Assembly (NCBI GenBank): GCA_040768745.1
Contig: JAXGMI010000001.1
Span: 448,001 to 512,000 of the forward strand
Direction of reading: 5' to 3'
Source of the DNA: Desulfomicrobium sp.
GTDB lineage: Bacteria > Desulfobacterota > Desulfovibrionia > Desulfovibrionales > Desulfomicrobiaceae
Length of the DNA: 64,000 nt
Of this stretch, positions 44,165 to 64,000 are shown in pieces. The number at the start of each line of letters is the position of its first letter. The stretch's first letter is position 1. A program made the position numbers and the translations under genes. Below the pieces are notes generated by a model. It was not told the DNA's origin and ran no database searches. It saw only the letters and a program-made list of their open reading frames with translations.

Positions 44165-44193
44165 GGAAAAACTGGTCAGATCCCTCTTGTTCT

Positions 44194-44548
44194 TGGTTCG
44201 ACACCTCCCGCTCGTGGTTCGACAAGCTCACCACGAACGGCGATAGTATCTCCGCTCAGGACACATGGTAATTCGTTGTTCCCGTTTATTGTGAGCCTCT
44301 CCGTTCCGTTCGTGGTGAGCCTCTCCGTTCCGTTCGTGGTGAGCCTCTCCGTTCCGTTCGTGGTGAGTCCCCGTTCGTGGTGAGTCCCCGTTCGTGGTGA
44401 GTCCCCGTTCGTGGTGAGCCTGTCGAACCATGGACGGAATCGTACATTTGCCGTTCGTGGTGAGCCTGTCGAACCATGGACGCAATCATGCATTTCCCGC
44501 TCGTGGCGAGCCTCTCCGTTCGTGGTGAGCCTGTCGAACCATGAACGC
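44194..44548. repeat. REP-like cluster built on CCGTTCGTGGTGAGCCTGTCGAACCATG with derived 24-bp and 17-bp tandem repeats
   Basis: Three direct copies (~44405, 44451, 44516), one inverted copy (44215-44240), 3x gtgagcctctccgttccgttcgtg and 3x gtgagtccccgttcgtg. Confidence 0.88.
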
Positions 44549-44717
44549 AATCAGGGCGGCACCGACAGACGGCCCGGTTTGGAGCCGTTCTTCCAACCCC
44601 TCGAAATTACGCCTTGTGCCCTGCGCTGCCCCTGGGCTATGTCCAGAGCGTTTTGTGGCTTGGCCCGTCCGGGCCTGACCCCCCGTCCCTGCATCCCCCG
44701 CTCTGGAGGCTATTTTC

Positions 44718-46409
44718 ATGGCTCGTCCCAAAAAGAATGCCGCCGCACCCACCGCCACCATTGGCTTCGAGGCCAAGCTCTGGCTCGCGGCCGACAAGCT
44801 GCGCAACAACATGGACGCGGCGGAATACAAGCACGTTGTCCTTGGGCTCATCTTTCTCAAATATATTTCAGATACTTTTGAAGAGCACCGCGCCAAACTC
44901 CTGGCCGGAGAAGGCGACTACGCCGGGGCCAATCCCGGGGATGCCGACGAGTACCGCGCCGAAAACGTGTTCTGGGTTCCGGCCGAGGCCCGGTGGTCCC
45001 ATCTTCAAGCAAATGCCAAGCAGCCCACCATCGGCAAGATCGTGGATGATGCCATGGTCGCCATCGAGCGTGACAATCCGCGCCTCAAAGGAGTGCTGCC
45101 CAAGGATTACGCCAGGCCCGGTCTCGACAAGCACCGCCTGGGCGAACTCATCGACCTGATCGCCACCATCACTCTCACGGCAGCCAGCGAGGGCGAACAG
45201 ACGCACCGTTCCGTTGATCTGCTCGGGCGCGTGTACGAATATTTCCTGACCCGCTTTGCCAGCGCCGAGGGCAAGAACGGCGGGCAGTTCTACACGCCAT
45301 CCTGTGTCGTGCGCTGTCTGGTCGAGATGCTCGCGCCGTACAAGGGGCGCATTTATGACCCCTGTTGCGGCTCTGGCGGCATGTTCGTGCAGTCCGAAAA
45401 ATTCGTGGAAGCCCACGGCGGCAAGGTTGGGGACATCAGCATCTACGGGCAGGAGAGCAATTCGACCACCCGGCGCCTGGCCGTCATGAACCTGGCCCTG
45501 CGCGGCATCGAGGCCGACTTCGGCCCTGAACACGCCGACACCTTCCGCCGAGACCTGCATCCTGACCTGCGAGCCGACTATGTTCTGGCCAATCCGCCCT
45601 TCAATGATTCGGACTGGTTCCGCAAGGACGATGACGTGCGATGGCAGTTCGGCATCCCGCCCAAGGGCAACGCCAACTTTGCCTGGGTGCAGCACTTTAT
45701 CCACCATCTTGCGCCCCAGGGCATGGCCGGTTTTGTCCTGGCCAATGGCAGCATGTCTTCCAACCAGTCAGGCGAAGGCGACATACGCCGCGCCCTGATC
45801 GAGGCCGACCTTGTGGACTGCATGGTGGCGCTGCCCGGTCAACTCTTCTACAGCACGCAGATTCCGGTCTGCTTGTGGTTTATTTCCCGCGACAAATCAG
45901 GCGGGAAACCCTCAACCCGTCCTCTCGGCCACCCTTCTCCCACTGGGAGAAGGGCTGGGGATGAGGGGCGTTTGCGCGACCGAAGGAAGCAAACGCTGTT
46001 CATAGACGCCCGCAAACTCGGCACTTTGATCGACCGCGTTCACCGAGAACTGACCGACGCTGATTTGGAGAAAATCGCCACTACCTATCACCGTTGGCGA
46101 CGGGCAGGATGCCCAAGTGCCGCGGAGGCCAGGACGGCCGAGAGCGGCCGAGGAGACAACGGCGCGACCGAATACGAAGACATCGCCGGTTTCTGTAAAT
46201 CCGCCACTACTGCCGAAATTGCTGCGCATGGTTTTGTGCTGACGCCGGGGCGTTATGTCGGGGCTGAGGAGGTTGAAGATGATGGGGAGCCCTTTGAGGA
46301 CAAGATGAAGCGGTTGGTGGCTGAGTTGACGGGATATTTCGAGGAGTCGGCGAAATTAGAGCTAAGTATACGCAACAACCTAGCAAGTATTGGATTCAAA
46401 TTGAAATGA
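44718..46409 (+). CDS. hsdM: Type I R-M methyltransferase subunit M, with two short in-frame palindromic insertions
   Basis: [48 protein letters not shown]. Confidence 0.96.
45909..45968. repeat. In-frame palindromic repeat in hsdM (same family as the DUF559 flanks)
   Basis: ccctcaaccc...cccttctccc-act-gggagaaggg-ctggggatgagggg, translated [20 protein letters not shown]. Confidence 0.85.
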
Positions 46410-46639
46410 GTGCACCGAAACAACGACAACGAGGGGTGTTCCACGAACCACTCCGCCCGAAGGATACTGCGACTCAAACCGAAGGATGTCGACATACTAA
46501 TCCCGATATTTGTTCCAACAATCAATTGTTCGATGTCTGTGCTTTCGTTCGGGCTGATAAAATGTGCATGCGTCCTCCTCGCTCATGGGCAAGGCAATAC
46601 GAAGTGTTGAAGACTCTTAAAATGAGATCAACAATATGA
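46406..46639 (+). CDS. Small 4-Cys hypothetical protein
   Basis: ATGA overlap with hsdM stop; C-x7-C-x8-C-x8-C followed by PPRSW; fills the hsdM-hsdS gap. Confidence 0.55.
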
Positions 46640-46675
46640 TGCTGCAGTCCGAAATAATCATTAGGAGATTTGGGC

Positions 46676-47971
46676 ATGGCGGGTGATTGGCAAACAGCAC
46701 CTCTTTCAGAACTCTGTGAGCAAATTGTTGACTGCCCACATTCGACCCCCTTGTGGACGAACTCCGGCGTTATTGTTTTGCGAAATCAAAACATCCGCAA
46801 TGGTAGGCTGGACCTCAGTTCTCCAAGCTTCACGGACGAAGCTCATTTCGAGCAACGAAGTCGACGAGCCAAATTGAAAGCTGGTGACCTCGTACTTACG
46901 CGTGAAGCACCGATGGGTGAGGTATGTCTAATTCCCGAAGGGCTGCGCTGCTGTCTCGGTCAACGTATGGTCATGCTCAGACCTGATCAGAAAAAGTGCG
47001 ATTCACGTTTTTTGCTCTATTCGATTCAATCTGACGTAGTTCAGCATGAAATCAAAGTGAACGAAGGAACTGGCTCGACGGTAAGCAATCTGCGGATTCC
47101 TTTGCTGGAGGCTTTGCCTATCTTCTTCCCATCGCTCACCGAACAAAAAACCATCGCGGCCGTGCTTGGGGCGCTGGACGACAAGATCGAATTGAACCGG
47201 CGGATGAATGCGACGCTGGAAGCGATGGCGCGGGCGCTGTTCCAGAGCTGGTTCGTGGATTTCGACCCCGTCCGCGCCAAACTTGATGGCCGCCAGCCTG
47301 TGGGGATGGATGAGGCTACGGCGGCGTTGTTTCCGGAGCACTTGGAAGATTCACCACTCGGACATATTCCCAAGGGCTGGGCGGCAGGCAGACTCGGCGA
47401 CATTGGCACGAACTTACGGCGCGGCGTACAGCCTAGCGACATTGCACCGAACACGCCATACATCGCCTTGGAACACATGCCGCGCCGAAGCATCGCGCTC
47501 GGCGATTGGGACGGCTCACCCGCCGTGGCAAGCGGCAAGTCCATTTTTAAGAAAGGCGAAATCCTCTTCGGCAAGCTACGGCCCTACTTCCATAAAGTCG
47601 GTGTTGCCCCGTTCGATGGCGTCTGTTCCACCGATATTCTCGTCCTCGCACCGAAAAGTCCCGAGTGGTTCGGCTTCCTCCTCGGCCACGCAAGCAGCGA
47701 CGAACTGATTCAATTCACCGATCTTGCCTCCACCGGAACTAAGATGCCGCGTACGAACTGGAGAGACATCAGTTCCTTCAGAGTCGTCCTGCCGCCGAAG
47801 TCCATCGCCACCACCTACACGCGTAACATTCAACCGATGCTCGACCGCATTTACGCCAACCTCCACCAATCCCGCACCCTCGCCACCCTGCGCGACACGC
47901 TGCTGCCGAAGCTGCTGAGCGGGGAGTTGAGTGTGGCGGCCTTGGAATCCAAATTGGCGGCAACCCAATGA
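46676..47971 (+). CDS. hsdS: Type I R-M specificity subunit S
   Basis: Two TRDs separated by EQKTIAAVLGALDDKIELNRRMNATLEAMARALFQSWFVDF; C-terminal LATLRDTLLPKLLSGEL; AGGAG RBS. Confidence 0.95.
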   Translation: MAGDWQTAPLSELCEQIVDCPHSTPLWTNSGVIVLRNQNIRNGRLDLSSPSFTDEAHFEQRSRRAKLKAGDLVLTREAPMGEVCLIPEGLRCCLGQRMVMLRPDQKKCDSRFLLYSIQSDVVQHEIKVNEGTGSTVSNLRIPLLEALPIFFPSLTEQKTIAAVLGALDDKIELNRRMNATLEAMARALFQSWFVDFDPVRAKLDGRQPVGMDEATAALFPEHLEDSPLGHIPKGWAAGRLGDIGTNLRRGVQPSDIAPNTPYIALEHMPRRSIALGDWDGSPAVASGKSIFKKGEILFGKLRPYFHKVGVAPFDGVCSTDILVLAPKSPEWFGFLLGHASSDELIQFTDLASTGTKMPRTNWRDISSFRVVLPPKSIATTYTRNIQPMLDRIYANLHQSRTLATLRDTLLPKLLSGELSVAALESKLAATQ

Positions 47972-49627
47972 ACCGTATGTTTCCAGCCCCAACGGGGCAT
48001 TATGCGATAGCCCAGGGCAACGCCCTGGGTTCATGGGCACACCCATTCGCAAGCCCTGAAGGGGCGGCATGGTTTTACGGGACCATGGATGGATCGACAC
48101 ACAATATTCCGCCCCTTCAGGGCGGGATTTCCTATGGGCCTTGTTCTTGTTCCCAGGGCGTTGCCCTGGGCTTTCACCGTACGCCCCGTTGGGGCTTTGA
48201 ATCATTTGGCGGCGATCCAATGAACCGCTTGCTTCCAACCCCTTCGGGGTATCATGCGACGGCAATCCAATTGAACCGTTTGGCTACAATCCAATGAACC
48301 GTCTGTTTCCAACCCCAACGGGGTATCATGCGATAGCCCAAGGCAACGCCCTGGGTTCATGGGATATACGTCCCACCAATTTCCCAAGCCCTGAAAGGGC
48401 GACATGGTTTTTCGCATCAACCGATGATCCCCCGCACAATATTCCGCCCCTTCAGGGCGGGACTTCGTATGGTCATGTTCTTGTTCCCAGGGCGTTGCCC
48501 TGGGCTTTCACCGTACGCCCCGATGGGGCTTTGAACCATTTGGAGGCAACCCAATGAACGGTTTGTTTCCACCCCCAATGGGGTGTCGTCATACATCGGC
48601 AATCCGATTGAATCATTTGGCGGCAACCCAATGAACCGCATGTTTCCAGCCCCAACGGGGCACCATGCGATAGCCCAGGGCAACGCCCTGGGTATTGGGG
48701 CACACACATTTCCAAGCCCTGAAGGGGCGATATGTTTTTACGGGACCATGGATGGATCGGCCAATATTCCGCCCCTTCAGGGCGGGATTTCGGGCCTTGT
48801 CCCCAGGGCAACGCCCTGGGTTCATGGGATATACGTCCCACCAATTTTCCAAGCCCTGAAAGGGCGACATGGTTTTACGAGATCATGGATGGATCGACAC
48901 ACAATATTCCGCCCCTTCAGGGCGGGACTTCGATGGGCGTTGTTCTTGTCCCCAGGGCGTTGCCCTGGCGGCCCCGTTGGGGCTTTGAATCATTTGGCGG
49001 CAACCCAATGAACGGTTTGTTTCCGCCCCCAATGGGGTGTCGTCATACATCGGCAATCCGATTGAATCATTTGGCGGCAACCAAATGAACCGTTTGCGTC
49101 CAGCCCCAACGGGGCATTACGCCCAGGGCAACGCCCTGGGTGCATGGGCACACACATTTCCAAGCCCTGAAGGGGCGACATGGTTTTACGGGACCATGGA
49201 TGGATCGGCACGCAATATTCCACCCCTTCAGGGCAGGATTTCATATGGACCTTGTTCTTGTTCCCAGGGCGTTGCCCTGGGCTTTTCACCGTACGCCCCG
49301 ATGGGGCTTTGAACCATTTGGGGGCAACCCAATGAACGGTTTGTTTCCACCTCCAATGGGGTGTCGTCATACATCGGCAATCCGATTGAATCATTTGGCG
49401 GCAACCCAATGAACCGCATGTTTCCATTTGCGATAGCCCAGGGCAACGCCCTGGGTACACACACATTTCCAAGCCCTGAAGGGGCGGCATGGTTTTACGG
49501 GACCATGGATGGATCGGCACGCAATATTCCGCCCCTTCAGGGCGGGACTTCCTATGCGCCATGTTCTTGTTCCCAGGGCGTTGCCCTGGGTATTTGGGTA
49601 CACACATTTCCAAGCCCTGAAGGGGCG
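47954..49627. repeat. Tandem array of about six nested-hairpin REP-doublet/MITE-like units (A-B-C-loop-C'-B'-A') with ~77-bp linkers
   Basis: A=gccccaacggggc, B=cccagggcaacgccctggg, C=gccctgaaggggc and their reverse complements; C/C' pairs at ~48053/48110, 48388/48445, 48716/48770, 48853/48910, 49164/49221, 49473/49530. Confidence 0.92.
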
Positions 49628-49634
49628 TAATCTT

Positions 49635-50087
49635 ATGCCGCAATCCCTCGCCCAAATCCTCGCACATCTGGTCTTCTCGACGAAAAACCGGGAACCGTCA
49701 CTGGCTGATGACATCCGCGATGAACTTCACGCGTACATCGGCGGCATTGTTGGAAACCAAAAAGGGACGCTGCTCAAAGCTGGCTCGGTTGCCGATCATA
49801 TCCACCTGCTGATCGCCATGCCCCGCACCTGCGCACCTGCCGATCTGGTTCAGGAAATCAAAACCAGCTCGTCAAAATGGCTGAAAACAAAATCGTCCTG
49901 TTCCACTTCTTTTCACTGGCAGGGTGGATACGGCATTTTTTCGATCAGCCCGTCCCATCGTCCGACACTAGAGAAATACATTGAAAATCAGGCAGAGCAT
50001 CACCGCGCGGTGACGTTTCAAGAGGAATACCGGCATTTGCTGCTCAAATACGGCATTGAATACGACGAACGATATGTCTGGGATTAA
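49635..50087 (+). CDS. tnpA: IS200/IS605-family Y1 HUH transposase (REP-associated type)
   Basis: HLVFSTKNR, DHIHLL (HUH), K..SSKW, WQGGY, YIENQ catalytic Tyr; no tnpB. Confidence 0.92.
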   Translation: MPQSLAQILAHLVFSTKNREPSLADDIRDELHAYIGGIVGNQKGTLLKAGSVADHIHLLIAMPRTCAPADLVQEIKTSSSKWLKTKSSCSTSFHWQGGYGIFSISPSHRPTLEKYIENQAEHHRAVTFQEEYRHLLLKYGIEYDERYVWD

Positions 50088-50096
50088 AGAAGATTT

Positions 50097-50178
50097 CGCC
50101 CTTTCAGGGCTTGGTTTGTCTGGTGACATTGCCCCCAGGGCGTTGCCCTGGGCTATCGCTTTGTGCCCCTTTGGGGCT
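50097..50178. repeat. Right-hand C'-B'-A' hairpin triplet closing the tnpA element
   Basis: cgccctttcagggct / cccagggcgttgccctgggctatcgc / gcccctttggggct. Confidence 0.9.
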
Positions 50179-50201
50179 GTGAATTGGAAGGAATAAAACC
50201 C

Positions 50202-51254
50202 ATGAGCAAAGATTCCGAGACACCACCGCCACCGGGCGGCCAGTTCCTCGTTTACCAGGCGGAAGACGGAAAGCTGAAGATCGACGTGCGGTTTGACGGC
50301 GAGACCGTCTGGCTGACGCAGCAGCACATGGCCGAGCTGTTCCAGACGACCCAGCAAAACATCAGTCTGCATCTCCAGAACATTTACGCAGAGAATGAAC
50401 TGCAGCTTGAGGCAACTCACAAGGAATCCTTGTCAGTTCGGCAGGAAGGCGCACGATCCGTCCGGCGACGTTTGGATTTCTACAATTTGGACGCCATTCT
50501 TTCCGTTGGCTACCGGGTGAAAAGCGTCGTAGCCACCCGCTTTCGCATCTGGGCCACCCAGCGACTTCGGGAATACATCGTCAAGGGTTTTATCCTCGAC
50601 GATGAGCGGTTGAAGAATCCGGACCAGCCCTTCGACTATTTCGAGGAGTTGATGCGGCGGATTCAGGACATCCGCACTTCGGAGCGGCGGTTCTACCAGA
50701 AAATCACGGACATCTACGCGACGAGTATCGACTACGATCCCACCCAAGAGGTCAGCCTGCAATTTTTCAAGACGGTGCAAAACAAGATTCATTGGGCCAT
50801 CACCGGGCAGACGGCCGCCGAGATCGTCCATGAACGAGTGGATGCGACGAAGCCCAACCTCGGCCTGACGAACTGGCGGGGCGCGGTGGTCCGCAAGCAT
50901 GATGTCGTCATCGCCAAGAACTATCTGAGTGAGCCGGAGTTGGAGGCGCTGAACAATCTCGTGGAGCAATACCTGATCTTCGCCCAGGGTCAGGCCATGC
51001 GGCGGGTTCCGATGCATATGGCGGACTGGATCGAGAAGTTGAACGGGTTTCTGACCTTGAATGACCGCGATATTCTCACCCATGCCGGACGTATTTCGCA
51101 CGAGATGGCGCAAACCAAGGCCGAGTTGGAATACGATAAGTTCAAGGCGCTCGCCGCCAGTGCCCCAAGACCCGTGGACGCGCATTTCGAACAGGCCACC
51201 AAAGACCTCAAGAAACTGCCGAAGCCGAAGAAACCCAAGCCCCAACAGCCATGA
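50202..51254 (+). CDS. RhuM-family (virulence RhuM-like) DNA-binding protein
   Basis: [54 protein letters not shown]. Confidence 0.88.
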
Positions 51255-54200
51255 CCATCAACGAATCCCTCATCGAAGAAGCAACCCTCCAATGGTTAGG
51301 GGAACTGGGCTATGCCGCTTTGCACGGCCCGATGCTCGCGCCCGGTGAACCGGCGACTGAGCGGGATTCGTTTGGTGATGTGGCGCTTGTCGGACGTCTG
51401 CGTGAAGCAATCCGGCGTCTGAATCCGGCCATGCCCGAAGAGGCTTGGGAAGATGCCGTACGCAAGGTTTTACTGGTGGCAACGCCATCCTTGACGCAGA
51501 CCAACCGTGCTTTTCACAAGATGCTGCGCGACGGGGTGCCGGTGGAGTATTCCCGGCCAGATGGCAGCATTGCTGGTGATCACGCCCGGCTGGTGGATTT
51601 CGACGACGTCTCGGCGAACGACTGGCTGGCGGTCAATCAGTTCACGGTCATTGAGGGCGCGCTCTCCTCTACCTCTGGGAGAGGCGGGGGTGAGGGTATC
51701 GGGGCGCACCGCCGCCCCGATATAGTGATTTTCGTCAACGGGCTGCCGCTGGGTCTGATCGAACTCAAAAACGCGGCGGATGAGGACGCGACGATCTGGA
51801 GCGCGTATGCACAGCTCCAAACCTACAAGAGTCAGATCCCATCACTATTGCAGTACAACGCGCTGCTTGTGGTCAGTGACGGCTTGCAGGCCCGCATGGG
51901 CTCGCTGACGGCCAATCAGGAATGGTTCAAGGTATGGAGGGAGCCGGATGTCTCGCCTCCACCCTCACCCCAACCCTTTCCCGCTGGGAGAGGGAGTGAA
52001 CATTATCGCGGAGGGTTCGGTTTTGCCGGATTGACAGACAAAGCGAGGAAATTGCGGCGGCACCAAACTTCGGCGGAAGAGTTGCTTTGGGACTTGCTGC
52101 GGGATCGACAGTTGATGGGGGCGAAATTCCGGAGGCAACACCAGTTCGGCGAATACATCTGCGATTTCTTCTGCCACGACGCAAAGCTGGTCGTGGAATG
52201 CGATGGCGAGCCGCACTCCGAAGCCGCACGCATGAAGCACGACGCCAAACGGGATGCTTATCTCAGGTCTCGGGGACTTACGGTTGTCCGGTTTGCAAAC
52301 GAACGGGTCTTGAATGACACCGACGCTGTTCTTCAGGAAATCGCCTCCCATTTCCCTTCTCCCGCTGGGAGAAGGGCCGGGGATGAGGGGCAGCAGCGAC
52401 CCAAAACCACGCTCGAACTCCAAACGTTGATTTACGGCGTCTTCGAGCGGGAACGCTTTCTCAAGCTGCTGCTACATTTCATTGTTTTCGAGGAGGACCC
52501 GGACTCCGGTGCGTTGCACAAGATCATCGCGGGCTACCATCAATTCCATGCCGTGAACGCGGCGGTGGAAGAGACCATTCGCGCCTCGCTCACTCCGCAT
52601 GATTTCGCGGGAAAGAACGCAACGCTCAGCGAGAACGCGGGCACCTACTGGGCGGGTCGCATGCATGGCGGCAAGCCGGGCGATCGACGTGCGGGAGTTG
52701 TCTGGCACACGCAGGGTAGCGGCAAGAGTTTCACCATGCTGTTCTTTGCCGCTCGCGTGATCCGCGAGAGTGCGATGCAAAACCCTACCCTAGTGGTCTT
52801 GACCGACCGCAATGACCTTGACGACCAGCTTTTCGGCCAATTTCAGCGCTGTCACGACATTCTCGGCCAGACTCCGGTACAGGCCGCGAATCGTGAGAAG
52901 ATGCGCGAATTGCTGGCCGTGGCGAGCGGGGGAGTGGTCTTCACCACGATCCAGAAATTTTTGCCCGAGCGGGGAGAGCGGATGCCCTGCCTGAGCGAGC
53001 GCCGGAACATCATCGTCATCGCCGACGAAGCGCACCGCAGCCAATACGATCTCATCGACGGCCTGGCCCGGCATATGCGCGATGCCTTGCCAAACGCCTC
53101 CTTCATTGGTTTCACCGGCACGCCCATCGAGAAGACCGACGCCAACACGCGGGCGGTCTTTGGCGATTACATTTCCATCTACGACATCCAGCGTGCCGTT
53201 GCCGACAAGGCCACGGTGCCGATCTACTACGAGAGCCGCATCTCCAAACTTGGCCTGAACGCCAGCGAACTGCCGACGCTCGACGCGGATTTTGAAGAGA
53301 TCACCGAAGGCGAAGAAGAGACGAAGAAGGAAAAACTCAAGTCCAAGTGGGCAGCGCTGGAAGCGTTGGTGGGTGATCCCAAGCGCGTCGCCCTCATCGC
53401 CGCCGATCTGGTGACGCATTTCGAGAAGCGCGTGGAGGCCATGGACGGCAAGGCCATGATCGTGTGCATGAGCCGCCGCATCTGCGTGGATATGTACGAA
53501 GCGCTCATCAAGCTTCGGCCAGACTGGGCCAGCGCCACGAATGACGACATTGAGGCCGAGAAGGGTAAGGACTGCGTGGTGAAGGTGGTCATGACCGGCA
53601 GTGCCGAAGACGGCCCGGACTGGCAACCCCACATCCGCAACAAGGACAAGCGCCGCAAGCTGGCCAACCGTTTCAAGGACAGCAAAGACCCCTTCCGGAT
53701 CGTGATCGTGCGCGACATGTGGCTGACCGGTTTTGACGCGCCTTGCCTGCACACCATGTATGCCGACAAGCCCATGCAGGGACACGGCCTCATGCAGGCC
53801 ATCGCCCGCGTGAACCGTGTCTTTCGTGACAAGCCGGGCGGTCTGGTGGTGGATTATCTGGGTCTGGCCGATCAGCTTAAAAATGCCCTGGCCAACTACA
53901 CCGAGAGCGGGGGCAAGGGTGACCCGACCTTTGACACTCGGCAGGCCATCGCCGTGATGCTGGAAAAGCACAATATCGCCTGCGACATCATGCACGGTTT
54001 CAATTGGAAATTGTGGACCACTGGCAAGCCTTCCGAGCGCCTGGCCCTCATCCCTGCCGGTCAGGAGCACATCCTGAGCCAGGAAGACGGCAAGAAGCGC
54101 TGGGTGCAGGTGGTGACCGAACTTTCTCGCGCCTTTGCCCTCTGCGCCGCGAGCGATGAAGCCACCGAAATTCGCGAAGACGTTTCCTTCTTCCAGGCCC

Positions 54201-54904
54201 TGCAAGCCGCGCTGAACAAGCAAAACGGCACCAGCCGCAAGACCCCTGAGCAGATCGACGCGGCCATCCGCCAGCTCGTGTCCAAGGCCATCACCACCGA
54301 AGGCCAGGTCATCGACGTCTTCACCGCCGCCGGACTTCCGAGGCCGGACATATCCATCCTGAGCGACCAATTCCTGGCCGAAGTGCGCGGCCTCAAACAC
54401 AAGAACGTCGCCGCCGAGTTGCTGGAGAAACTGCTCAAGGATGAACTGAAGGTCCGCGCCAAGCGGAACATCGTCCAGAGCCAGGTGTTCAGCGAGAAGC
54501 TCAAGAAGACGCTCAATTCCTATCATAACCGGGCCATCTCGACGATGGAGGTTATCGAGGAACTCATCACCCTGGCCAAGGAAATGGAAGCCGCGACAAA
54601 GCGGGGTGAACATCTCGGCCTGACGGATAATGAGATTGCGTTTTACGACGCTCTCGCCGCCAACGAATCCGCCGTGAAAGCAATGGGCGACGACAAGCTC
54701 AAGGTCATCGCCACGGAACTCATCACCCAGATCCGCAAGAGCGTGACCATTGACTGGACTTTGCGCGAAGGCGCGCGGGCAAAGATGCGCGTGATGGTCA
54801 AGCGCATCCTGAACAAGTACGGCTATCCGCCGGACCTCCAGGCAGAAGCGGTGAAGACGGTGCTTATGCAGGCGGAGTTGTTGTGCAGGGAGTGGGCGGC
54901 GTGA
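51251..54904 (+). CDS. hsdR: Type I R-M restriction subunit R with an internal DUF559 nuclease insertion
   Basis: [59 protein letters not shown]-terminal KYGYPPD. Confidence 0.96.
51962..52390 (+). mobile_element. DUF559 (Vsr-like PD-(D/E)xK) endonuclease cassette with inverted hairpin repeats, in frame in hsdR
   Basis: ARKLRR.QT.AE.LLW..LR...KFRRQH..G.YI.DF....KLVVE.DG..H...D..RD..L...G..V.RF.N; flanks 51962-51995 and 52353-52389 are mutually inverted. Confidence 0.8.
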
Positions 54905-54940
54905 GTTCCGCGCGCGAGCGCCGGCCCCCTGGCGAGAGCT

Positions 54941-54984
54941 GGCCCCTTGCGGGGGCAGGCGTGCGGCGTTCCCCCGCAGGGCCT
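54941..54984. terminator. GC hairpin between convergent hsdR and hlyD
   Basis: ggccccttgcggggg...cccccgcagggcc; no clear U-tract. Confidence 0.4.
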
Positions 54985-56318
54985 CAGCGCTCCCGACACG
55001 CCTCCAGCACGGCCTTGGTCACCGGCGAGAGCAGATATTCCAGCACGGACCGCTGGCCGAGCCTGATCTCGGCCGAAACCTGCATCCCCGGCAGCAGGGG
55101 ATAGCTCTGGCCCCCGTGGAGCAGATGCTGCGTGGCCAGGCCGATGGTTGATTTGTAGACCAGGGGCGCCCCTTCCCCTCTCTCCCCCTGACCCGCGCCT
55201 TCCCCCACGGCGTTCGCGTCCGGCCCGACCCGTTCCACCATGCCGTCCAGCATCCCGTATTTCTGGAAGGCAAAGGCCCCCAGCTTCACCACCGCGGGCT
55301 GTCCCGGGGCGACAAACCCGATGTCCTCATTCTGGATCCACACCTCGGCCAGCAATTCCTCTTTCCCGGGCACCAGGGTCATGACAATGGTGCCGGGGCT
55401 GACCACCGTGCCCACCGTATGGGTGGCCAGGTCCTTGACCACCCCGTCCTGGGGCGCGGTCAGCTCCAGCAGTTCATTGCGTCGATCCTCCTTGGTCAGG
55501 GCCTGTTCCACCGCGGCCAGCCTGGACATGGTCTCCACCCGTTCCGCGCGCAGATTGCGCTGATCATCCGCCCGGACTTGGATAATCCGCTTTTCGACCC
55601 GCACAATGTCGGCCTTCAGGCCCTGCACGGCGAACTCCTGCGCGTTCAGCTCCCGCTCCTTTTCCTGGCGTTCCCGGTGCTTGTCCGTGACCAGCAGGCG
55701 GGGCACATGCCCGTCCCGGCCCAGACGGCCGTATGCCTCGTCCTGATCCCGGTAATGGGCCAGGGAGTCCACCATGCGCGTCCTGGTCTCCACCGCCCCG
55801 GACAGCTCATGCCGGGCCTTTTCCAGCAGGGCCCGCTGTTCGGCCACGGCATTGGCCAGGGCCAGGCGATTGGCCTGGAACTGGGCCTGCACCCCGGCAA
55901 AGAGATCCGCCGGATCGTCCTGGTGCCGGAAAAACGGCGAATCCGCCAACTCCGCGTCGATGCGGCGCAAGGTCAAAGTCAGGCGGTGCCTGTCCGCCAC
56001 CAGGGTCGCGCGGTCCGCCCGCACGTCGGTGCCGTCCAGGCGCATGAGGGGCTGCCCCTGACGGACCGCATCGCCCTCCCGCACCAGAATCTCCTTGACG
56101 ATGCCGCTCTCGGCAGGCTGCACGATCTTGAGATACGTTCTGGGCACCAGCCTGCCCTGGGCCACGGCCACGATATCCAGTTGCCCGAAGATGCCCCAGA
56201 CCAGCATTGTGGCGCAAAACGCCAGGAGGGTGCCAAGCAGTTTCCGGCCCAGGGGCGAAGGCGGAGTTTCCCGCACACGACGGTGCCCGGGCCAAAATTC
56301 CAGAAATTCGTCGGTCAT
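54984..56318 (-). CDS. HlyD-family type I secretion membrane fusion protein
   Basis: LDIVAVAQGRLVP..KIVQP, LTAPQDGVV, KLGAF.FQKYG, PGMQVSAEI..GQRSVLEYLLSP. Confidence 0.93.
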   Translation of the reverse strand: MTDEFLEFWPGHRRVRETPPSPLGRKLLGTLLAFCATMLVWGIFGQLDIVAVAQGRLVPRTYLKIVQPAESGIVKEILVREGDAVRQGQPLMRLDGTDVRADRATLVADRHRLTLTLRRIDAELADSPFFRHQDDPADLFAGVQAQFQANRLALANAVAEQRALLEKARHELSGAVETRTRMVDSLAHYRDQDEAYGRLGRDGHVPRLLVTDKHRERQEKERELNAQEFAVQGLKADIVRVEKRIIQVRADDQRNLRAERVETMSRLAAVEQALTKEDRRNELLELTAPQDGVVKDLATHTVGTVVSPGTIVMTLVPGKEELLAEVWIQNEDIGFVAPGQPAVVKLGAFAFQKYGMLDGMVERVGPDANAVGEGAGQGERGEGAPLVYKSTIGLATQHLLHGGQSYPLLPGMQVSAEIRLGQRSVLEYLLSPVTKAVLEACRER

Positions 56319-56397
56319 GACCCAACCCGTGGGGGTTTGCCCCCTTCAACCGCATCGGCAGGGCGGGAGAATGCGCATGCCCCCCGCCCTGCCGCGT

Positions 56398-59300
56398 TCA
56401 TCCAAGACGGACCGCGCCGGTCTGCAGACCGGAGAATGGCCGCAGGGCTTGCAAAGATGCGCCGAAGTCCGCACCCCCCACCACCTCCTGGGCGGCCAGG
56501 ACGTCCATGCCCGTCAGACTGCCATTCCTGCCGTACCAGTAGGCCAGATCACCGCCCACGGCCTCGCTGTCGCTGCCGCCGAGATGGTACTGCCCCAGGG
56601 CGTTCAGCAGGTCCCAGCTTGTCAGCCCGGGATCGGCCTGCCTGGCCTGGTCGAACTGGCCCACCAGACCCATGAAATCGAACCGCTCCACCCTGTGGTC
56701 CAGAATGGGGCTCGTCGAGGTGGGATCGTACTCGTCCGTGGAGTCCAGAACGACCTGCAGCGTTCCGACACTCTGGCCCGAACGCGCATACCAATCCCTG
56801 AACAGCACCGACTCCGCGTTGCCCACGTCCAGGATCAGATCCTTGCCCTGCACGCGAAACGAGAGGTCGGAGTATCCGATCCCGTTGCCCAGGGACAGGG
56901 TGTTGTCCCCGCCCTTGGACGCCCCGACGATGTCCGCCCCGTCACCGCGGTTGAAGGCGATGACGTCCGTCCCCGTGCCCGTGATCACTGTGTCGTTCCC
57001 GCTGCCGCCGATGAACAGTTCCGCACCGGCGCCGCCGGTCACGGCGTCGTCGCCGGAACCGCCATGCAGCAGGGCGTTGCCCGAGGTGTCGGTCAGGACG
57101 TCGTTCCCCGCCCCTCCCTCCAGGATGTCGTTGCCCCGGCCGCCGTTCAGGGCATTGGTGGAGCTGTTCCCGCGCAGATAATTGGCCAGGGCGTTGCCCG
57201 ACCCATCCAGGGCCGCCTCCCCGCTCAGCATCAAGTATTCGACGCTGCGGGGCAAGGTCAGGGAGACCGCGGAGTGGAGAAGATCCATGCCCTCGTCCGC
57301 GTTTTCCGTGATCTTGTCCGAGGTCGTGTCCACATGGTAGGCGTCGTCGCCGGTTCCCCCGGCCATGGTGTCCGCACCCCCGCCGCCATCGAGCACGTCG
57401 TCCCCCGCGCCTCCGGTCAGGACGTTCTTCGCGCTGTTGCCCACGAGCACATTGTCCAGGGCATTGCCTGTTGCGCTGGTGGCGGCCGTGCCGGTCAGGG
57501 TCAGGTTTTCGACATGGTCGGGCAGGGTGTAGCCCACAGAACTGACCACCTGATCCGCGCCTTCCCCTGCATTCTCCATGACCACATCCCCTGTGTTGTC
57601 CACGAGGTACGTGTCGTTGCCAGGCCCTCCGCCCATGGTGTCCAGACCCGCGCCGCCGTCGAGGAGGTCGTCGCCGGCCTTGCCGATGAGGGCGTCGTCG
57701 CCGGCCAGGGCAAAAACCCGGTCATTGCCCGAACCGCCCTGCAGTGTGTCCGCATCCGCCGTGCCGGTGAGGATCAGGTCCTGTACCGTGACCGTGACGT
57801 CGAAAACGTCGCTGGCGCTGAGCCCCCCCGCATCCCGGGCAGTGACCCGCACGCTCAGGGTGCCCGATGCCCCCTCGGGAGGAATGCCCTCAAATGCGCG
57901 GCTCCGGCTGTCAAAGGTCAGCCATGCGGGCAGGTCCGATCCATCCACCAGGGTCGCCGAGTAGGACAGGGGATCGGCATCCGGATCGACAAAGGCCCCG
58001 GCTGGAATGACGTGACTGAAGGCCGCCCCCTCGGCCACGGCCAGGTCCTCCAGAGGCTCGGCCAGGGCGGGGGCCCGGTTGGGAGCGTCCACCACGATGG
58101 TCACGGGGGTGCCCGCCGCAAGCCCGTATGTGTCCGTCCCCCACAGCACGAAGTCCAGGATGCCGGCGTCTGGAGCCAGCGGGGTGCCTTCGAAAATCCG
58201 CAGGTTCGCGTCGAACTGCAGCCATGGGGGCAGCGGGGAGCCGTCGCTCATGCTGGCGCTGTAGGTCAGTCTGTCCCACGCATCGGGATCAGCCATGATC
58301 CCATCCCGCACGACATACGAGAAAGGCATGCCGATGGTGGCCTGCAGTTCCGGCACGGGCTGAACCGAAACCGGGGCCTGGTTGGAGGCGACCCGGTTGA
58401 CCACGGTGTCGATCATGGAACCATCCCAGGCCGCGCCGTTCTCGAAGCAAACCTGTTCGATCCTGTAGTCCTGAAAGCCCATTCCTTGCAGAACAGCCGG
58501 GGCGTAGTGGTTGAACACGACCACCTGGTCCAGGCCCTCCGTGAGGGTGAACACCAGATGTTCGCCGACGCGGAAGGCCCTCACGTCCTGCTCGCCGATG
58601 CCCGACCCGAAGCGCAGGGTGTCATTGCCCCCGGCAAGATCATGGTCATCAATGGTGTCCTGGCCGTCCCCCCGCCGGAAGACGTAGATGTCCTGACCAC
58701 CTCCGCCCTGCAGGTAATCGCTTCCCACATCCCCGTGCAGTGCATCGTCCCCGTCATCCCCATACAGCACGTCATCCCCGTCTCCTCCGGACAGATCGTC
58801 TGCATCTTCCCCCCCTGACAGATGATCGTCTCCGATCCCGCCATGAAGGGTATCACCCCCCTCCTGGCCAAGCAGGACATCGCTGCCGTCTCCTCCAAGG
58901 AGAACGTCGCTGCCTGCCCCGGCCTGCAGATGGTCATCCCCGTCCCCGCCCAGCAGGGTGTCGTCGCCGGAGTCCCCCTGCAGCAAGTCGTTCCCCTCAC
59001 CGCCGTCAAGGATGTCTTTGGCGTCACCGCCAAGCAGGGTATCGTGTCCGCTGCCGCCGGACAGGACATCGTCGCCAACACCTCCATAGAGCATGTCCTG
59101 CCCGCTGCCGCCGCTGAGCATGTCGTTGCCCCCGTCCGGGGCGTCATGGTTGAGGACGAAATTCAGGGTCGTGTAGCCTGTATGAAAACCTTTTTCGTGG
59201 GTCTGGAACTCAACGCCCAGGCTGGGCAGATTGTCCAGATTCAGAGATATGGGCAGGGTCAGGTAGCCATCCCCGACCAGGATGTCGTCGCCATCTCCCC

Positions 59301-61857
59301 CGGACAGCTTGTCCGCATGGGAGGCCCCGGCCAGCACATCATTTCCAGCCAGTCCCTGCATCTGGTCGTCGCCGTTCAACCCATCCAGAAAATCATTGTC
59401 CTCCCCGCCAGCGATCCGGTCCGCCCCGCCGCTGCCGCTGATCCAGTCGTTGCCAGCGCCTCCGTCCAGCTGGTCCCCCTCCACGGGTCCGGCCATGGAG
59501 ATGGGCTTGTTGTTCCAGGCGGTGATGTTGCCCATGAGGATATCCGATCCGTTCCCTCCAAGAATTTCGTCCCGGCTCTGGAATCCGAACAGAAAGTCCC
59601 CGGAATCCCCGCCGTTGACATGCAGACGCGGGGCCGTGGCCGGAAAGGGCTGCTCGAAAATGAACGAGCCTTCCGTCGCACCGGGCGGAAAGGTGGCCAG
59701 GTACAGTTTCCAGTTGGCCGGGTCGGAGCTGAAATTGAGAATGCCCATTTCGTCCCGGTCCTGCGTTCCGTTCAGGACCAGGTCCGAAGCCGGAGGCTCG
59801 TCCTGCAGGACAAAGCCGAAGTCCTGCCCTGCGAAGTCGGCTGCCGAGGTTTGCCGGTCAAACGTGACGCTGTCAGTGGGGCCCAGGTTCAGGACCCCGG
59901 GGGAATGGAAGGTCAGGGGCCGGAGGCTGCCGTCATCGCTGATGAACGTGTAGGTGTCCTCGTCGACTTTCATGAACACGCCGGCGATGAGCTGCCCGTT
60001 GTACAGGATATTGTTGCGCCCTTCGTCGATGACGTGGTCGTTTCCCTGAATGGAGTAGGTGTCCACCCCGGCGCCGCCAGACATGACATCATCCCCGACC
60101 CCACCGTCCAGAACGTCGTCGCCAGGACCGCCTTCGAGATAATCGTTGCCGGCGTATGTCCGGAGGATGTCGTTCCCGCCGCCGCCAAAAACGTGATCGT
60201 CGAATCCGGCGTCCGGGTTCAGCGGATCACGGGCCACGTCTATTGTGTCCGCCTGTTCGGACCCGAAAACGTACTCCGGCGAGGGTGTGCGGTAGGGAGC
60301 AGAGTTGGGCACTGTGTTGTTGATGGACACCCCCGTCCCCCTGTCCTCGAAATAACAATAAAGGTCCGGCGAAATCGTGTCCTGCCTGTCCAGATCACGG
60401 ACAGCCAGCTCATTCTTCAGGGCCAGAAACCTGGCCCGCGCCTCCAGATATTCCCCGGTCAAGCCCTGCCCGGTCTGGGCATCGAACAGGTCAAGCTGGC
60501 CCTGATGGTTGAACCGGTCATACAGCCCCCCTTCCCCGCTGACCATGAACGGATTCAGATTGACCAGTGCGTAGCGGGCGGCCACTGAGGCTTGGGCAAG
60601 GCTGGCCAGCTGGGCAGCACTCTGGTTCACCAGGGGCGTAATGGTCCGGGACGTGCCAGCCAACGCTTGGTGAATCATCGAAATCCGCTGATAGAGCGCT
60701 TCACGAATGCTCCCGTCCACGGCCTCGTCCTTGTGCACATCCTGATAGCCGGGAACCAGCATCCTGCCGAAGACATTGACCAGGGATTCGAAGGTGGAAT
60801 TCGTGTCACCAGAGGCTCCCTCGAAAATGGGGCTCAACTCGGCCATGACGGCGTCGGCGCTGGCCGTTTGCAACCGGCTGTCCGCCCTGATGAAAAGATC
60901 GTACACGGCCAGAGCGTCGGTCATCTGCTCGATGCCATGCCCAAAGGAACCGTTCCATGCTGTCTCGATGAAAATCCCGGTATGGGATCCGGGCTGGGCC
61001 AACAACCCTCCTGGCGAATCCTGGGTGACCAGCTCCGGTCCCTTTGTCCCGTACAGGTTGAGGATGCTGGCCTGGTCAAAAGACCCGCCGCCCAGCGTGG
61101 AAAAAAGGTGCTCGATGTTTGCCGTCTTCCACGAGTCCGCGCCCAGGGAAAACCCGGCCCCGTTGATTGCCACGGCATCCTCGACCAGACCCGGGAAAAG
61201 GCGGGACGCGGCCATGGCCAAATGCCCACCCAGGCTATGCCCCGTGGTGATGATGTCTGCCGCGGCCTTGAGGGCGCCGTCCTCTGTGGCGATGACGGAC
61301 TGCAATTGGATCGCGTATACGCCCGAGCCTGGCCCATCAAAAATCAGGTCGGTCCTGGCCATGAGTTCCGATTTGACCTGCGCGTACAGCACCGGGTCAT
61401 GAGCGGCCTGGAGCAGCCGATCCGTGGAGGCCTGGTCAAACTCCAGCGCCGCCACGGTATATGTGGAGCCTTGGGCCGAGCGCAGACGCTGCATGTCGTT
61501 GAACAGGTCGAGAATCTGCTTGATGGCCACCCCGTCGGCAATGATGTCCCCGAAATCCGCGGACGTGGTGTCTTGGGAGAGAAACTCGGTCCCGCGACAG
61601 GCGTAGACAAATTCTCCGCTGACCTTGTTCTGAAAGAGTGTGGCGGAAAACCCGGTACCGGTGTTCGGCAGATGGTACACAACAGACCATGTTCCCACAA
61701 AGTCTGCGGCCTGGGTGGGGGAAAAGGAGCCATTAAGGTTTGAATTTTGGAGAGCAGCTTCGATTCGCTCTTTTGAAAAATCTGGCAACTTGTCGAATGC
61801 GATATAAACTGCATCACTCAACGATGCCATATCATACAAGTTTTTTGTATTAATCAT
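56398..61857 (-). CDS. RTX calcium-binding exoprotein with N-terminal lipase-like (alpha/beta hydrolase) domain and two cadherin-like/Ig domains
   Basis: TGFSATLF, RGTE, TGHSLGGHLA (61225-61242); many GGxGxD nonapeptides; two N.AP...F.Y...D.D...L.YSA...DGS.LP.WL.FD domains. Confidence 0.9.
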   Translation of the reverse strand: MINTKNLYDMASLSDAVYIAFDKLPDFSKERIEAALQNSNLNGSFSPTQAADFVGTWSVVYHLPNTGTGFSATLFQNKVSGEFVYACRGTEFLSQDTTSADFGDIIADGVAIKQILDLFNDMQRLRSAQGSTYTVAALEFDQASTDRLLQAAHDPVLYAQVKSELMARTDLIFDGPGSGVYAIQLQSVIATEDGALKAAADIITTGHSLGGHLAMAASRLFPGLVEDAVAINGAGFSLGADSWKTANIEHLFSTLGGGSFDQASILNLYGTKGPELVTQDSPGGLLAQPGSHTGIFIETAWNGSFGHGIEQMTDALAVYDLFIRADSRLQTASADAVMAELSPIFEGASGDTNSTFESLVNVFGRMLVPGYQDVHKDEAVDGSIREALYQRISMIHQALAGTSRTITPLVNQSAAQLASLAQASVAARYALVNLNPFMVSGEGGLYDRFNHQGQLDLFDAQTGQGLTGEYLEARARFLALKNELAVRDLDRQDTISPDLYCYFEDRGTGVSINNTVPNSAPYRTPSPEYVFGSEQADTIDVARDPLNPDAGFDDHVFGGGGNDILRTYAGNDYLEGGPGDDVLDGGVGDDVMSGGAGVDTYSIQGNDHVIDEGRNNILYNGQLIAGVFMKVDEDTYTFISDDGSLRPLTFHSPGVLNLGPTDSVTFDRQTSAADFAGQDFGFVLQDEPPASDLVLNGTQDRDEMGILNFSSDPANWKLYLATFPPGATEGSFIFEQPFPATAPRLHVNGGDSGDFLFGFQSRDEILGGNGSDILMGNITAWNNKPISMAGPVEGDQLDGGAGNDWISGSGGADRIAGGEDNDFLDGLNGDDQMQGLAGNDVLAGASHADKLSGGDGDDILVGDGYLTLPISLNLDNLPSLGVEFQTHEKGFHTGYTTLNFVLNHDAPDGGNDMLSGGSGQDMLYGGVGDDVLSGGSGHDTLLGGDAKDILDGGEGNDLLQGDSGDDTLLGGDGDDHLQAGAGSDVLLGGDGSDVLLGQEGGDTLHGGIGDDHLSGGEDADDLSGGDGDDVLYGDDGDDALHGDVGSDYLQGGGGQDIYVFRRGDGQDTIDDHDLAGGNDTLRFGSGIGEQDVRAFRVGEHLVFTLTEGLDQVVVFNHYAPAVLQGMGFQDYRIEQVCFENGAAWDGSMIDTVVNRVASNQAPVSVQPVPELQATIGMPFSYVVRDGIMADPDAWDRLTYSASMSDGSPLPPWLQFDANLRIFEGTPLAPDAGILDFVLWGTDTYGLAAGTPVTIVVDAPNRAPALAEPLEDLAVAEGAAFSHVIPAGAFVDPDADPLSYSATLVDGSDLPAWLTFDSRSRAFEGIPPEGASGTLSVRVTARDAGGLSASDVFDVTVTVQDLILTGTADADTLQGGSGNDRVFALAGDDALIGKAGDDLLDGGAGLDTMGGGPGNDTYLVDNTGDVVMENAGEGADQVVSSVGYTLPDHVENLTLTGTAATSATGNALDNVLVGNSAKNVLTGGAGDDVLDGGGGADTMAGGTGDDAYHVDTTSDKITENADEGMDLLHSAVSLTLPRSVEYLMLSGEAALDGSGNALANYLRGNSSTNALNGGRGNDILEGGAGNDVLTDTSGNALLHGGSGDDAVTGGAGAELFIGGSGNDTVITGTGTDVIAFNRGDGADIVGASKGGDNTLSLGNGIGYSDLSFRVQGKDLILDVGNAESVLFRDWYARSGQSVGTLQVVLDSTDEYDPTSTSPILDHRVERFDFMGLVGQFDQARQADPGLTSWDLLNALGQYHLGGSDSEAVGGDLAYWYGRNGSLTGMDVLAAQEVVGGADFGASLQALRPFSGLQTGAVRLG

Positions 61858-63654: not shown

Positions 63655-63701
63655 GCAAGAATATTTAGCAATAATATCTTGAAATAGCAAGATATTTGTC
63701 A

Positions 63702-64000
63702 CTATAGAACCGATCTGTAGTACAACCGCTGATGTGCTCCTTGCGGCGTGAGCGTGAGTCCATCGAGGAGCCAGCCAAGCTGTTGCGGGGTGATATTCAT
63801 GACCTCTGACGCCCGCTCGGGCCAGCAGAATCGATGCTTCTCCAGGCGCTTGTGCCAGAGGCAGAAGCCGTTGCGATCCCAGTACAGCACCTTGATGGCG
63901 TCGCGCCTGCGGTTGCAGAAGACAAAGAGGTGTCCGGAAAAGGGGTCCAGATCGAGAATGCCCTGGGCCGTCATGCTCAGTCTGTCGATGCCGGCGCGCA
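63702..64000 (-). CDS. tnpB: IS66 accessory protein TnpB (5' end outside the window)
   Basis: LDPFSGHLFVFCNRRR..IKVLYWDRNGFCLWHKRLE..RF.WP, L.WLLDG. Confidence 0.93.
   Translation of the reverse strand, partial: RAGIDRLSMTAQGILDLDPFSGHLFVFCNRRRDAIKVLYWDRNGFCLWHKRLEKHRFCWPERASEVMNITPQQLGWLLDGLTLTPQGAHQRLYYRSVL

Follow-up and report, generated by a model that had tools for sequence, protein, structure and literature searches.

In a 64,000-nucleotide stretch of a Desulfomicrobium sp. genome (contig JAXGMI010000001.1, positions 448,001 to 512,000; hereafter the window), hsdR, a gene of type I restriction–modification (RM), carries an in-frame cassette in which a DUF559 nuclease domain is flanked by inverted ends at 51962–51994 and 52354–52389. 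Our analysis favours the reading, to which we give a probability of roughly 0.6, that this cassette is one copy of a selfish unit combining a Vsr-fold nuclease with triplex-motif ends in a RAYT/REP-like layout, the enzyme acting on its own ends and the unit spreading among RM alleles. Sequence comparisons indicate that the unit is optional and mobile. The features concerned are as follows.

51251..54904, plus strand: host gene hsdR, type I restriction subunit of 1217 residues (open reading frame with domain and motif searches)
51934..52474, plus strand: donor-type co-converted tract, the cassette with short host flanks like those of filled alleles (DNA alignment)
51962..51994, minus strand: left end, BoxC/TM-type triplex motif with a 9-bp stem, a 3-nt loop and a G-rich third strand (one point mismatch)
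52001..52353, plus strand: DUF559, YcjD-like Vsr-fold nuclease with an HYRGG leader and without a start or stop of its own (Pfam, structure match)
52354..52389, plus strand: right end, triplex-motif variant with a 10-bp stem (10 of 10 predicted base triads valid)

The open reading frame at 51251–54904 encodes a type I HsdR (TIGR00348, 557.7 bits) whose own motifs are intact (PD157...E171xK173, QxxxY at residues 188–192, Walker A QGSGKS at residue 488 and DEAH at residue 592), in an operon ordered hsdM (44718), hsdS (46670), Y1 transposase, rhuM and hsdR. DUF559 lies between the HSDR_N domain (residues 3–225) and the motor domains, and the net in-frame gain is 145 residues relative to empty alleles, which read WRTIDGETDAPK there; an earlier note on this DNA, made from its letters alone, had described about 150 extra residues with a complete DUF559 motif set, and the searches bear this out. 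Residues 262–366 match Pfam DUF559 (PF04480), a member of the Vsr-like PD-(D/E)xK nucleases, at 121.6 bits against a cut-off of 20.6 and over model positions 4–106 of 109, with the catalytic residue set present (E276, D305, E316, D318, H322 and D331). A model of the insert matches PDB 3hrl with a TM-score of 0.84 by target length and a root-mean-square deviation of 2.6, and more weakly 3r3p, the catalytic domain of I-Bth0305I (0.75 by target length). The insert scores 82 bits against the YcjD equivalog (PRK09767), below the cut-off of 218, which places it in a different DUF559 subfamily from E. coli YcjD. Only about 20 residues of linker precede the domain within the insert, where Pfam reported DUF559 and MTES_1575 alone, with no NUMOD, other DNA-binding region or Y1_Tnp (HUH Y1 transposase), and where Pfam and NCBIfam found no DDE or HUH transposase; PADLOC returned no defence family other than a weak 19-bit DpdF stretch. 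These matches indicate that the insert is a Vsr-fold nuclease domain with intact catalytic motifs and predicted activity. In an AlphaFold model of HsdR residues 1–700 that was confident in parts only (mean pLDDT 61), the insert formed a separate domain (about 90) joined by low-confidence linkers.

An assembly artefact was ruled out, since the insert is unchanged in contigs of three DNA runs: one contig of run X12 is identical over both insert junctions, and contigs of runs X13 and X14 tile the insert with zero differences. Run X13 had contig breaks at 51908–51937 and 52400–52424 and a fall in depth from 9.9 to 7.2 over the cassette; a second allele in the sample may be the cause. No cassette-skipping joint was present among the X13 contigs listed. 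In metatranscriptome X15, low-depth contigs reach as far as 51974 and resume at 52559; none lies within the cassette and no joint skips it, and these data bear on neither expression nor splicing.

Empty alleles occur, some of them within the genus. Among 24 same-genus genomes searched, three hold the gene in full (G155, G159 and G175) and all three are empty, and a homologue search recovered a group of HsdR proteins of 1054–1064 residues without the insert, one of which (P0072) is 94% identical to the window protein over aligned positions. When the window was aligned with five empty and seven filled alleles, leaving out the cassette and scar columns, 23 of the 25 informative sites inside the tract were of donor type (one empty-type, one other), and 107 of the 121 informative sites outside 51930–52480 were of empty type (10 donor-type, four other). 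The breakpoints fall at 51877–51934 on the left and 52474–52483 on the right, with donor DNA extending at most about 85 nt to the left and about 90 nt to the right of the repeats, and an earlier alignment with three empty alleles gave the same mosaic pattern. In a tree of the motor region the window protein falls within a group with 100% support, and the 16 other proteins of that group are all empty; on this tree the label for insertion site B needs 14 changes, at least eight of them forced by well-supported branches, and two proteins scored empty by the motif rule yet carrying cassettes (P0039 and P0062) both lie outside the window's group. The mosaic tract and the nesting among empty alleles together indicate that the cassette was copied laterally, by recombination, from a filled allele into an empty-type hsdR, and its arrival with flanking host DNA points to homologous recombination between alleles rather than fresh insertion. 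Given the mosaic tract and the empty alleles within the genus, a domain inherited vertically within an HsdR subfamily is ruled out.

A search across species genomes recovered 405 relatives; the 80 best loci were retained and make 82 cassettes together with the window; the searches were seeded with the insert, and prevalence is hence overstated. Seventy-five of the 82 lie in frame and on the host strand in RM genes, at nine positions (four HsdR loops, four in HsdM and one in HsdS); another, in an hsdM locus, has a broken frame, and the remaining six, all from Acidobacteria, are free-standing with unrelated genes around them. The nine in-frame sites are unrelated target sequences, and the domains they hold are 55–85% identical. 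All of the best 120 of 490 longer homologues have an RM-type Pfam domain. Another 145 representatives included 76 long proteins that were scanned by Pfam, 52 of them with RM domains (mostly HsdS, also HsdM, HsdR, Eco57I/TaqI-like, MmeI, Type ISP and type III Mod) and 24 others, comprising 21 with DUF559 only at that threshold and three with GNAT, poly(A) polymerase or DUF7814; more distant relatives are found in type IIG and type III enzymes. Two cassettes each are carried by five proteins (P0001, P0121, P0122, P0125 and P0176). In a quick, weakly supported nuclease tree, cassettes cluster by site, with 10 of 11 site-B cassettes together (support 88), although some loops have been colonised by several lineages, and the free-standing and HsdR-embedded copies of Acidobacteria are neighbours. 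The embedded nucleases are under strong purifying selection, with a median dN/dS of 0.06–0.19 at each insertion site (gap-free pairs with dS of 0.1–1.5 only) and ExDGxxH kept in 75 of 80 cassette nucleases. Of 78 loci found with an empty HsdR, 15 contain repeat copies, and in five the operon includes a cassette. DUF559 genes are enriched among predicted programmed-inversion targets in the available sections of one study (PMC9881135), and a flip of the cassette would end HsdR at residue 256; an invertible on/off switch is ruled out, as none of the 82 cassettes is inverted in an RM gene.

By their letters the cassette ends correspond to the intrastrand-triplex motif of BoxC/PIT/TM repeats, known since the 1990s, matching it or varying on it. 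In the available sections of Holder et al. 2015 (PMC4666352), the motif consists of a pyrimidine stem, a short loop, a purine stem, a short loop and a G-rich third strand; single-stranded E. coli motifs, as distinct from the window variants, fold as triplexes in vitro by circular dichroism and nuclear magnetic resonance; TM sites show an association with local instability in E. coli, and in vitro polymerase stalls at them; and the repeats are treated as lying near or between genes, without an assigned function. Predicted base triads (G.G-C, A.A-T and T.A-T) are valid at 10 of 10 positions in the right end of the window cassette and at eight of nine in the left, whose stem is interrupted by a mismatch (T at 51978) and hence forms an imperfect hairpin. 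The two mutually inverted GC hairpins of the earlier note are both present as inverted copies, but the left stem is mismatched and the triplex motif makes the ends more than hairpins. Exact matches to the published TMECO consensus number none in the window, where the left end has one mismatch and the right is a 10-bp variant, and 67 in the 80 related loci.

A left-type element is present at the left flank in 70 of 81 related cassettes and at the right flank in 74 of 81, compared with eight of 1340 random windows from the same loci, and the cassette bears terminal inverted repeats. Translated on the plus strand, the left end of the window copy gives an 11-residue linker and the right end a 12-residue linker. 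The reading frames of the left end are split 58/10/2 among the 70, indicating that it is conserved as DNA, and the right end, which is also the nuclease C-terminus, is nearly always read in one frame. Covariation extends over three strands: in 60 of 61 distinct copies an A in the purine stem corresponds to A or T in the tail, and in 81 of 81 a stem G corresponds to a tail G. The copies are related and represent few events copied widely rather than 142 independent ones. The three-frame reading and the covariation rule out conservation of the ends merely as peptides. The GTAG/CGTC tag is absent at both window ends and is not common to the listed flanks, and comparison with empty alleles revealed no target-site duplication or target consensus, at junctions that are old and replaced by donor flanks. 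Locus L005 has a 66-nt in-frame tandem duplication of host flank and left end, stopping just after the stem.

We also compared nuclease and repeat in other genomes. The E. coli DUF559 gene ycjD has sapF and fabI on either side, and about 170 nt downstream of it there is a BoxC copy oriented like the right end of the window cassette; of 5426 genomes, 3343 have the complete locus. Four ycjD-positive chromosomes contained 23, 29, 26 and 10 exact motifs and four ycjD-negative ones 12, 11, 3 and 2, a difference that is suggestive yet tied to lineage. Across a 121-genome family sample, at least five repeats were present in four of five genomes with the close subfamily (one of them the chosen centre) versus three of 116 others, and six genomes with a free-standing copy hold 5–30 exact repeats, many as inverted pairs. 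Of 30 DUF559 loci scanned, 14 have a generic triplex motif within about 550 nt, compared with none of 60 control segments; five further loci, in which the anchor motif was not found, were left out of this sample. The 14 loci, which come from E. coli, cyanobacteria, alpha- and gammaproteobacteria and Acidobacteria, include several sequence variants, and distinct DUF559 lineages are paired with distinct triplex variants. These distributions indicate that the unit also occurs free-standing between genes, in genomes with dispersed and often paired repeats, in a REP/RAYT-like layout.

Two further repeat copies in the operon, which the earlier note missed, lack the nuclease.

51661..51708, plus strand: repeat-only in-frame copy in hsdR, right-end type, 14 extra codons, just before the catalytic PD
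45909..45967, plus strand: repeat-only in-frame copy in hsdM, with left tail, small hairpin, stem and right tail (allele comparison)

The 14-codon hsdR insert recurs in other hsdR alleles and is absent in the empty allele, and the hsdM loop is nearly identical in loci L138, L139 and L181 and missing in the closest operons, L106 and L148. The window genome has four repeat copies, all within this RM operon, which has three repeat-bearing loops that are absent from its closest empty relatives; by comparison of alleles, the import pattern of the repeat-only hsdR and hsdM loops appears similar to that of the cassette. At 46100–46150, HsdM has a variable loop with small hairpins of another type, where P0122, P0125 and L056 hold a full cassette.

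The interpretation in the earlier note is borne out in part by these data. Empty alleles were found, as it expected from homologue alignment, in the three same-genus genomes and the 1054–1064-residue group; together with the mosaic tract they support its patchy, laterally moving cassette. The three-frame reading, covariation and Pro/Gly translation agree with its description of the ends as DNA-level elements that double as linkers, and the flank counts and the 14 motif-bearing loci with its link between DUF559 and the repeat elsewhere. None of the outcomes it had named as telling against it (a vertical domain without flanking hairpins, no association with the repeat, no HMM match) was observed. 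Its overall interpretation holds as far as a mobile in-frame unit is concerned, but the window copy appears to have come by recombination between alleles, and the repeat was already known as BoxC/PIT/TM.

Its claim of in-frame residence without splicing likewise agrees with our searches. An intein is ruled out, as Pfam and NCBIfam gave no HINT or intein family and the junction peptides are Pro/Gly linkers, and a group I or II intron is ruled out, as Rfam at E<=1 over 43500–56000 reported only Acido-Lenti-1 and SAM-Chlorobi, neither in hsdR. As far as the letters tell, in-frame copies sit in variable loops of RM proteins and have no intein or intron features, their ends being read as Pro/Gly linkers and the nuclease forming a domain of its own.

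We compared the unit with known systems as described in the available sections of the papers cited. It resembles BoxC/PIT/TM repeats (PMC4666352) in motif architecture, in dispersal, often as inverted pairs, and in copy numbers that are very uneven between relatives, but cassette copies bracket a nuclease and are translated within proteins, and the window ends are not exact consensus. REPtrons, in which REP or REPIN sequences accompany a RAYT (PMC8266576, PMC3733652), similarly have a nuclease gene between inverted folded repeats, which also occur alone or as doublets and occasionally in frame in genes; unlike them, the cassette has a Vsr-fold PD-(D/E)xK enzyme instead of HUH Y1, no GTAG/CGTC tag, ends with a third strand, and an entire enzyme cassette in frame within host proteins. 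An enzyme between inverted, dispersed or doublet repeats is what the free-standing relatives show, with the copies of the window genome confined to the operon; the likeness to RAYT/REP drawn in the earlier note fits the free-standing form but does not extend to the enzyme class or the tag. With EDxHD or Vsr-like homing endonucleases and inteins (I-Bth0305I, PMC3239194) the cassette shares the catalytic fold, the E-D-x-H-D set, residence in a host gene, site-specific alleles and co-converted flanks, but it has no intein, intron or NUMOD, occupies many unrelated sites and has structured DNA ends. Rickettsia palindromic elements and in-frame miniature inverted-repeat transposable elements (PMC2229807, PMC3733652) are also palindromic DNA tolerated in frame as peptide; these are non-autonomous and enzyme-free, whereas the repeat-only copies here are joined by a cassette whose nuclease is intact. 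The DUF559 family also includes E. coli YcjD (PRK09767) and Neisseria NGO0050 (PDB 3hrl), which are free-standing genes. The combination lacks defining features of REPtrons, inteins, introns, EDxHD homing endonucleases and insertion sequence (IS) elements. Nuclease family, repeat and in-frame palindromes are already known singly, and the comparison suggests that their combination is undescribed: openly available main texts yielded no description of DUF559 cassettes in RM genes or of a link between YcjD and BoxC, and the available sections of the main text of PMC4666352 mention neither ycjD nor nuclease nor endonuclease.

If the cassette is a selfish unit, the nuclease would recognise the folded single-stranded triplex or hairpin end and nick at or near it. 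Such nicking would seed rare new sites, with the repeat alone or the whole cassette, and would raise local recombination, so that empty alleles could acquire a filled loop by copying when horizontal transfer brings RM operons together; spread by short-tract recombination is the step that the alleles indicate for the window copy itself. Recombination between the two self-complementary stems may delete the nuclease and leave repeat-only scars, as the scars at the same loops suggest. In-frame survival of the copies would follow from ends that encode flexible linkers and a domain that folds by itself, and RM genes are probably a long-term refuge, being exchanged frequently between lineages and tolerating loop insertions.

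Several observations weigh against this reading. Ordinary homologous recombination accounts equally well for the arrival of the window copy, RM genes recombine freely so that discordance between trees is by itself weak proof, and the original junctions are eroded, with neither a target-site duplication nor a shared target sequence found. The case for nuclease action on the ends is one of association, and no motif is nearby at 16 of the 30 scanned DUF559 loci. The repeat counts of ycjD-positive and ycjD-negative E. coli overlap and are confounded by lineage, and 20 of 26 genomes picked for an RM-embedded cassette have at most four exact repeats, so embedded copies do not visibly amplify the repeat. 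In the available sections of PMC4666352, no stable triplex was seen in duplex DNA or in vivo. Tolerance alone explains poorly the RM bias of the in-frame hosts (all of the best 120 of 490, and 52 of 76 with two clearly non-RM).

That bias keeps alive the alternative offered in the earlier note, a domesticated accessory nuclease, which we consider unlikely. Here selection would favour a Vsr-fold nickase tethered anywhere on the RM complex, for a second cut on phage DNA or for repair of damage near target sites, and the triplex repeats would be mere recombination handles. The nearly exclusive occurrence in RM proteins (types I, IIG/IIL and III), which the selfish unit leaves unexplained, fits such a role, as do the purifying selection on embedded copies, the intact catalytic motifs of nuclease and host, and the place of Vsr enzymes as functional partners of methyltransferases in the available sections of PMC3424549. 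A defined geometry is difficult to reconcile with positions that vary over R, M and S; loci found with an empty HsdR have repeat copies more often than a cassette in the operon (15 versus five of 78), nuclease-free inserts spread likewise, free-standing relatives with the same ends lie among unrelated genes, and the weak DpdF stretch is all that PADLOC offers by way of a defence family.

Passive hitchhiking and classical homing fit less well than either a selfish unit or a domesticated nuclease. On the former, which we regard as improbable, the triplex motif is unstable and recombinogenic through replication stalling and slippage and moves without an enzyme, and the nuclease was captured between two copies and carried along by RM recombination. 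The purifying selection on catalytic residues at every site, the pairing of DUF559 lineages with triplex variants and the relation of repeat number to the nuclease across the 121 genomes of the family sample would then go unexplained, even though TM sites are unstable in E. coli and stall polymerase in vitro (available sections of PMC4666352), the L005 duplication, ending at the left stem, resembles slippage, and ycjD-negative E. coli strains retain 2–12 motifs. Classical homing, in which the nuclease, in the manner of the related EDxHD homing endonuclease I-Bth0305I, would cut the empty allele at the site of insertion and be copied in by break repair, is very improbable: the insert has no NUMOD or other DNA-binding region, in contrast to the NUMOD repeats of that family (available sections of PMC3239194), similar domains occupy nine unrelated target sequences, and repeat-only loops were imported similarly without a nuclease. 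The short co-conversion tract on both sides, the site-wise clustering of cassettes on the tree, like intein alleles, and the resemblance of the fold to 3r3p are what speak for it.

Extending the selfish-unit reading, we tentatively propose that DUF559/YcjD proteins are the missing mobilising enzymes of BoxC/PIT/TM repeats, forming a class of elements with intrastrand-triplex ends, one branch of which would be a non-splicing in-frame RM parasite that cuts its own folded ends to colonise loops and drive copying into empty alleles. The pairing with DUF559 gives these repeats a candidate enzyme, testable in E. coli K-12 through ycjD. If the nuclease acts on the ends, the unit would be a mobile element with a DNA triplex as its end signal and would provide a way for an entire enzyme domain to become part of proteins in frame, with no intein or intron splicing involved. 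The cassette also explains many annotations of 'DUF559-containing' HsdR, HsdM, HsdS, type IIG and Mod proteins, and its ends the PSPQPSPxGRG, PHPNPLPEGEG and LTPALSQGERE peptides of RM proteins. What this locus contributes is a co-conversion tract mapped against same-genus empty alleles, together with three repeat-bearing loops in one operon.

Other elements lie in and around the operon. A Y1 (IS200-like, RAYT-type) transposase at 49509–50087 sits within an array of 10 palindromic CCCAGGGC-nnn-GCCCTGGG repeats (47985–50178) that occur nowhere else in the genome and score just under the Rfam Acido-Lenti-1 cut-off. The array lies between hsdS and rhuM and has no match in L106 or L148, the closest empty operons, which makes it a second hairpin-plus-nuclease element lodged in the same RM operon. 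Upstream of hsdM, 44170–44560 holds a cluster of TTCGACA(A/G)GCTCAC-type palindromic repeats with short tandem units; this type, which may be linked to GIY-YIG nucleases, occurs 16 times in the genome, with 10 copies grouped at C1:900260–901864. The only other DUF559 gene of the genome, L002 (G000:C3:102233–102532), is free-standing; its neighbours, judged by eye, are hsdS-like and hsdM-like genes of another type I locus, and different GC-rich double hairpins lie upstream. Downstream of hsdR, the list of open reading frames gives, at 54984–61857, an HlyD-type secretion adaptor followed by a protein of 1819 residues whose calcium-binding repeats are rich in glycine; the list also has an IS66-like transposase at 62101–63702.

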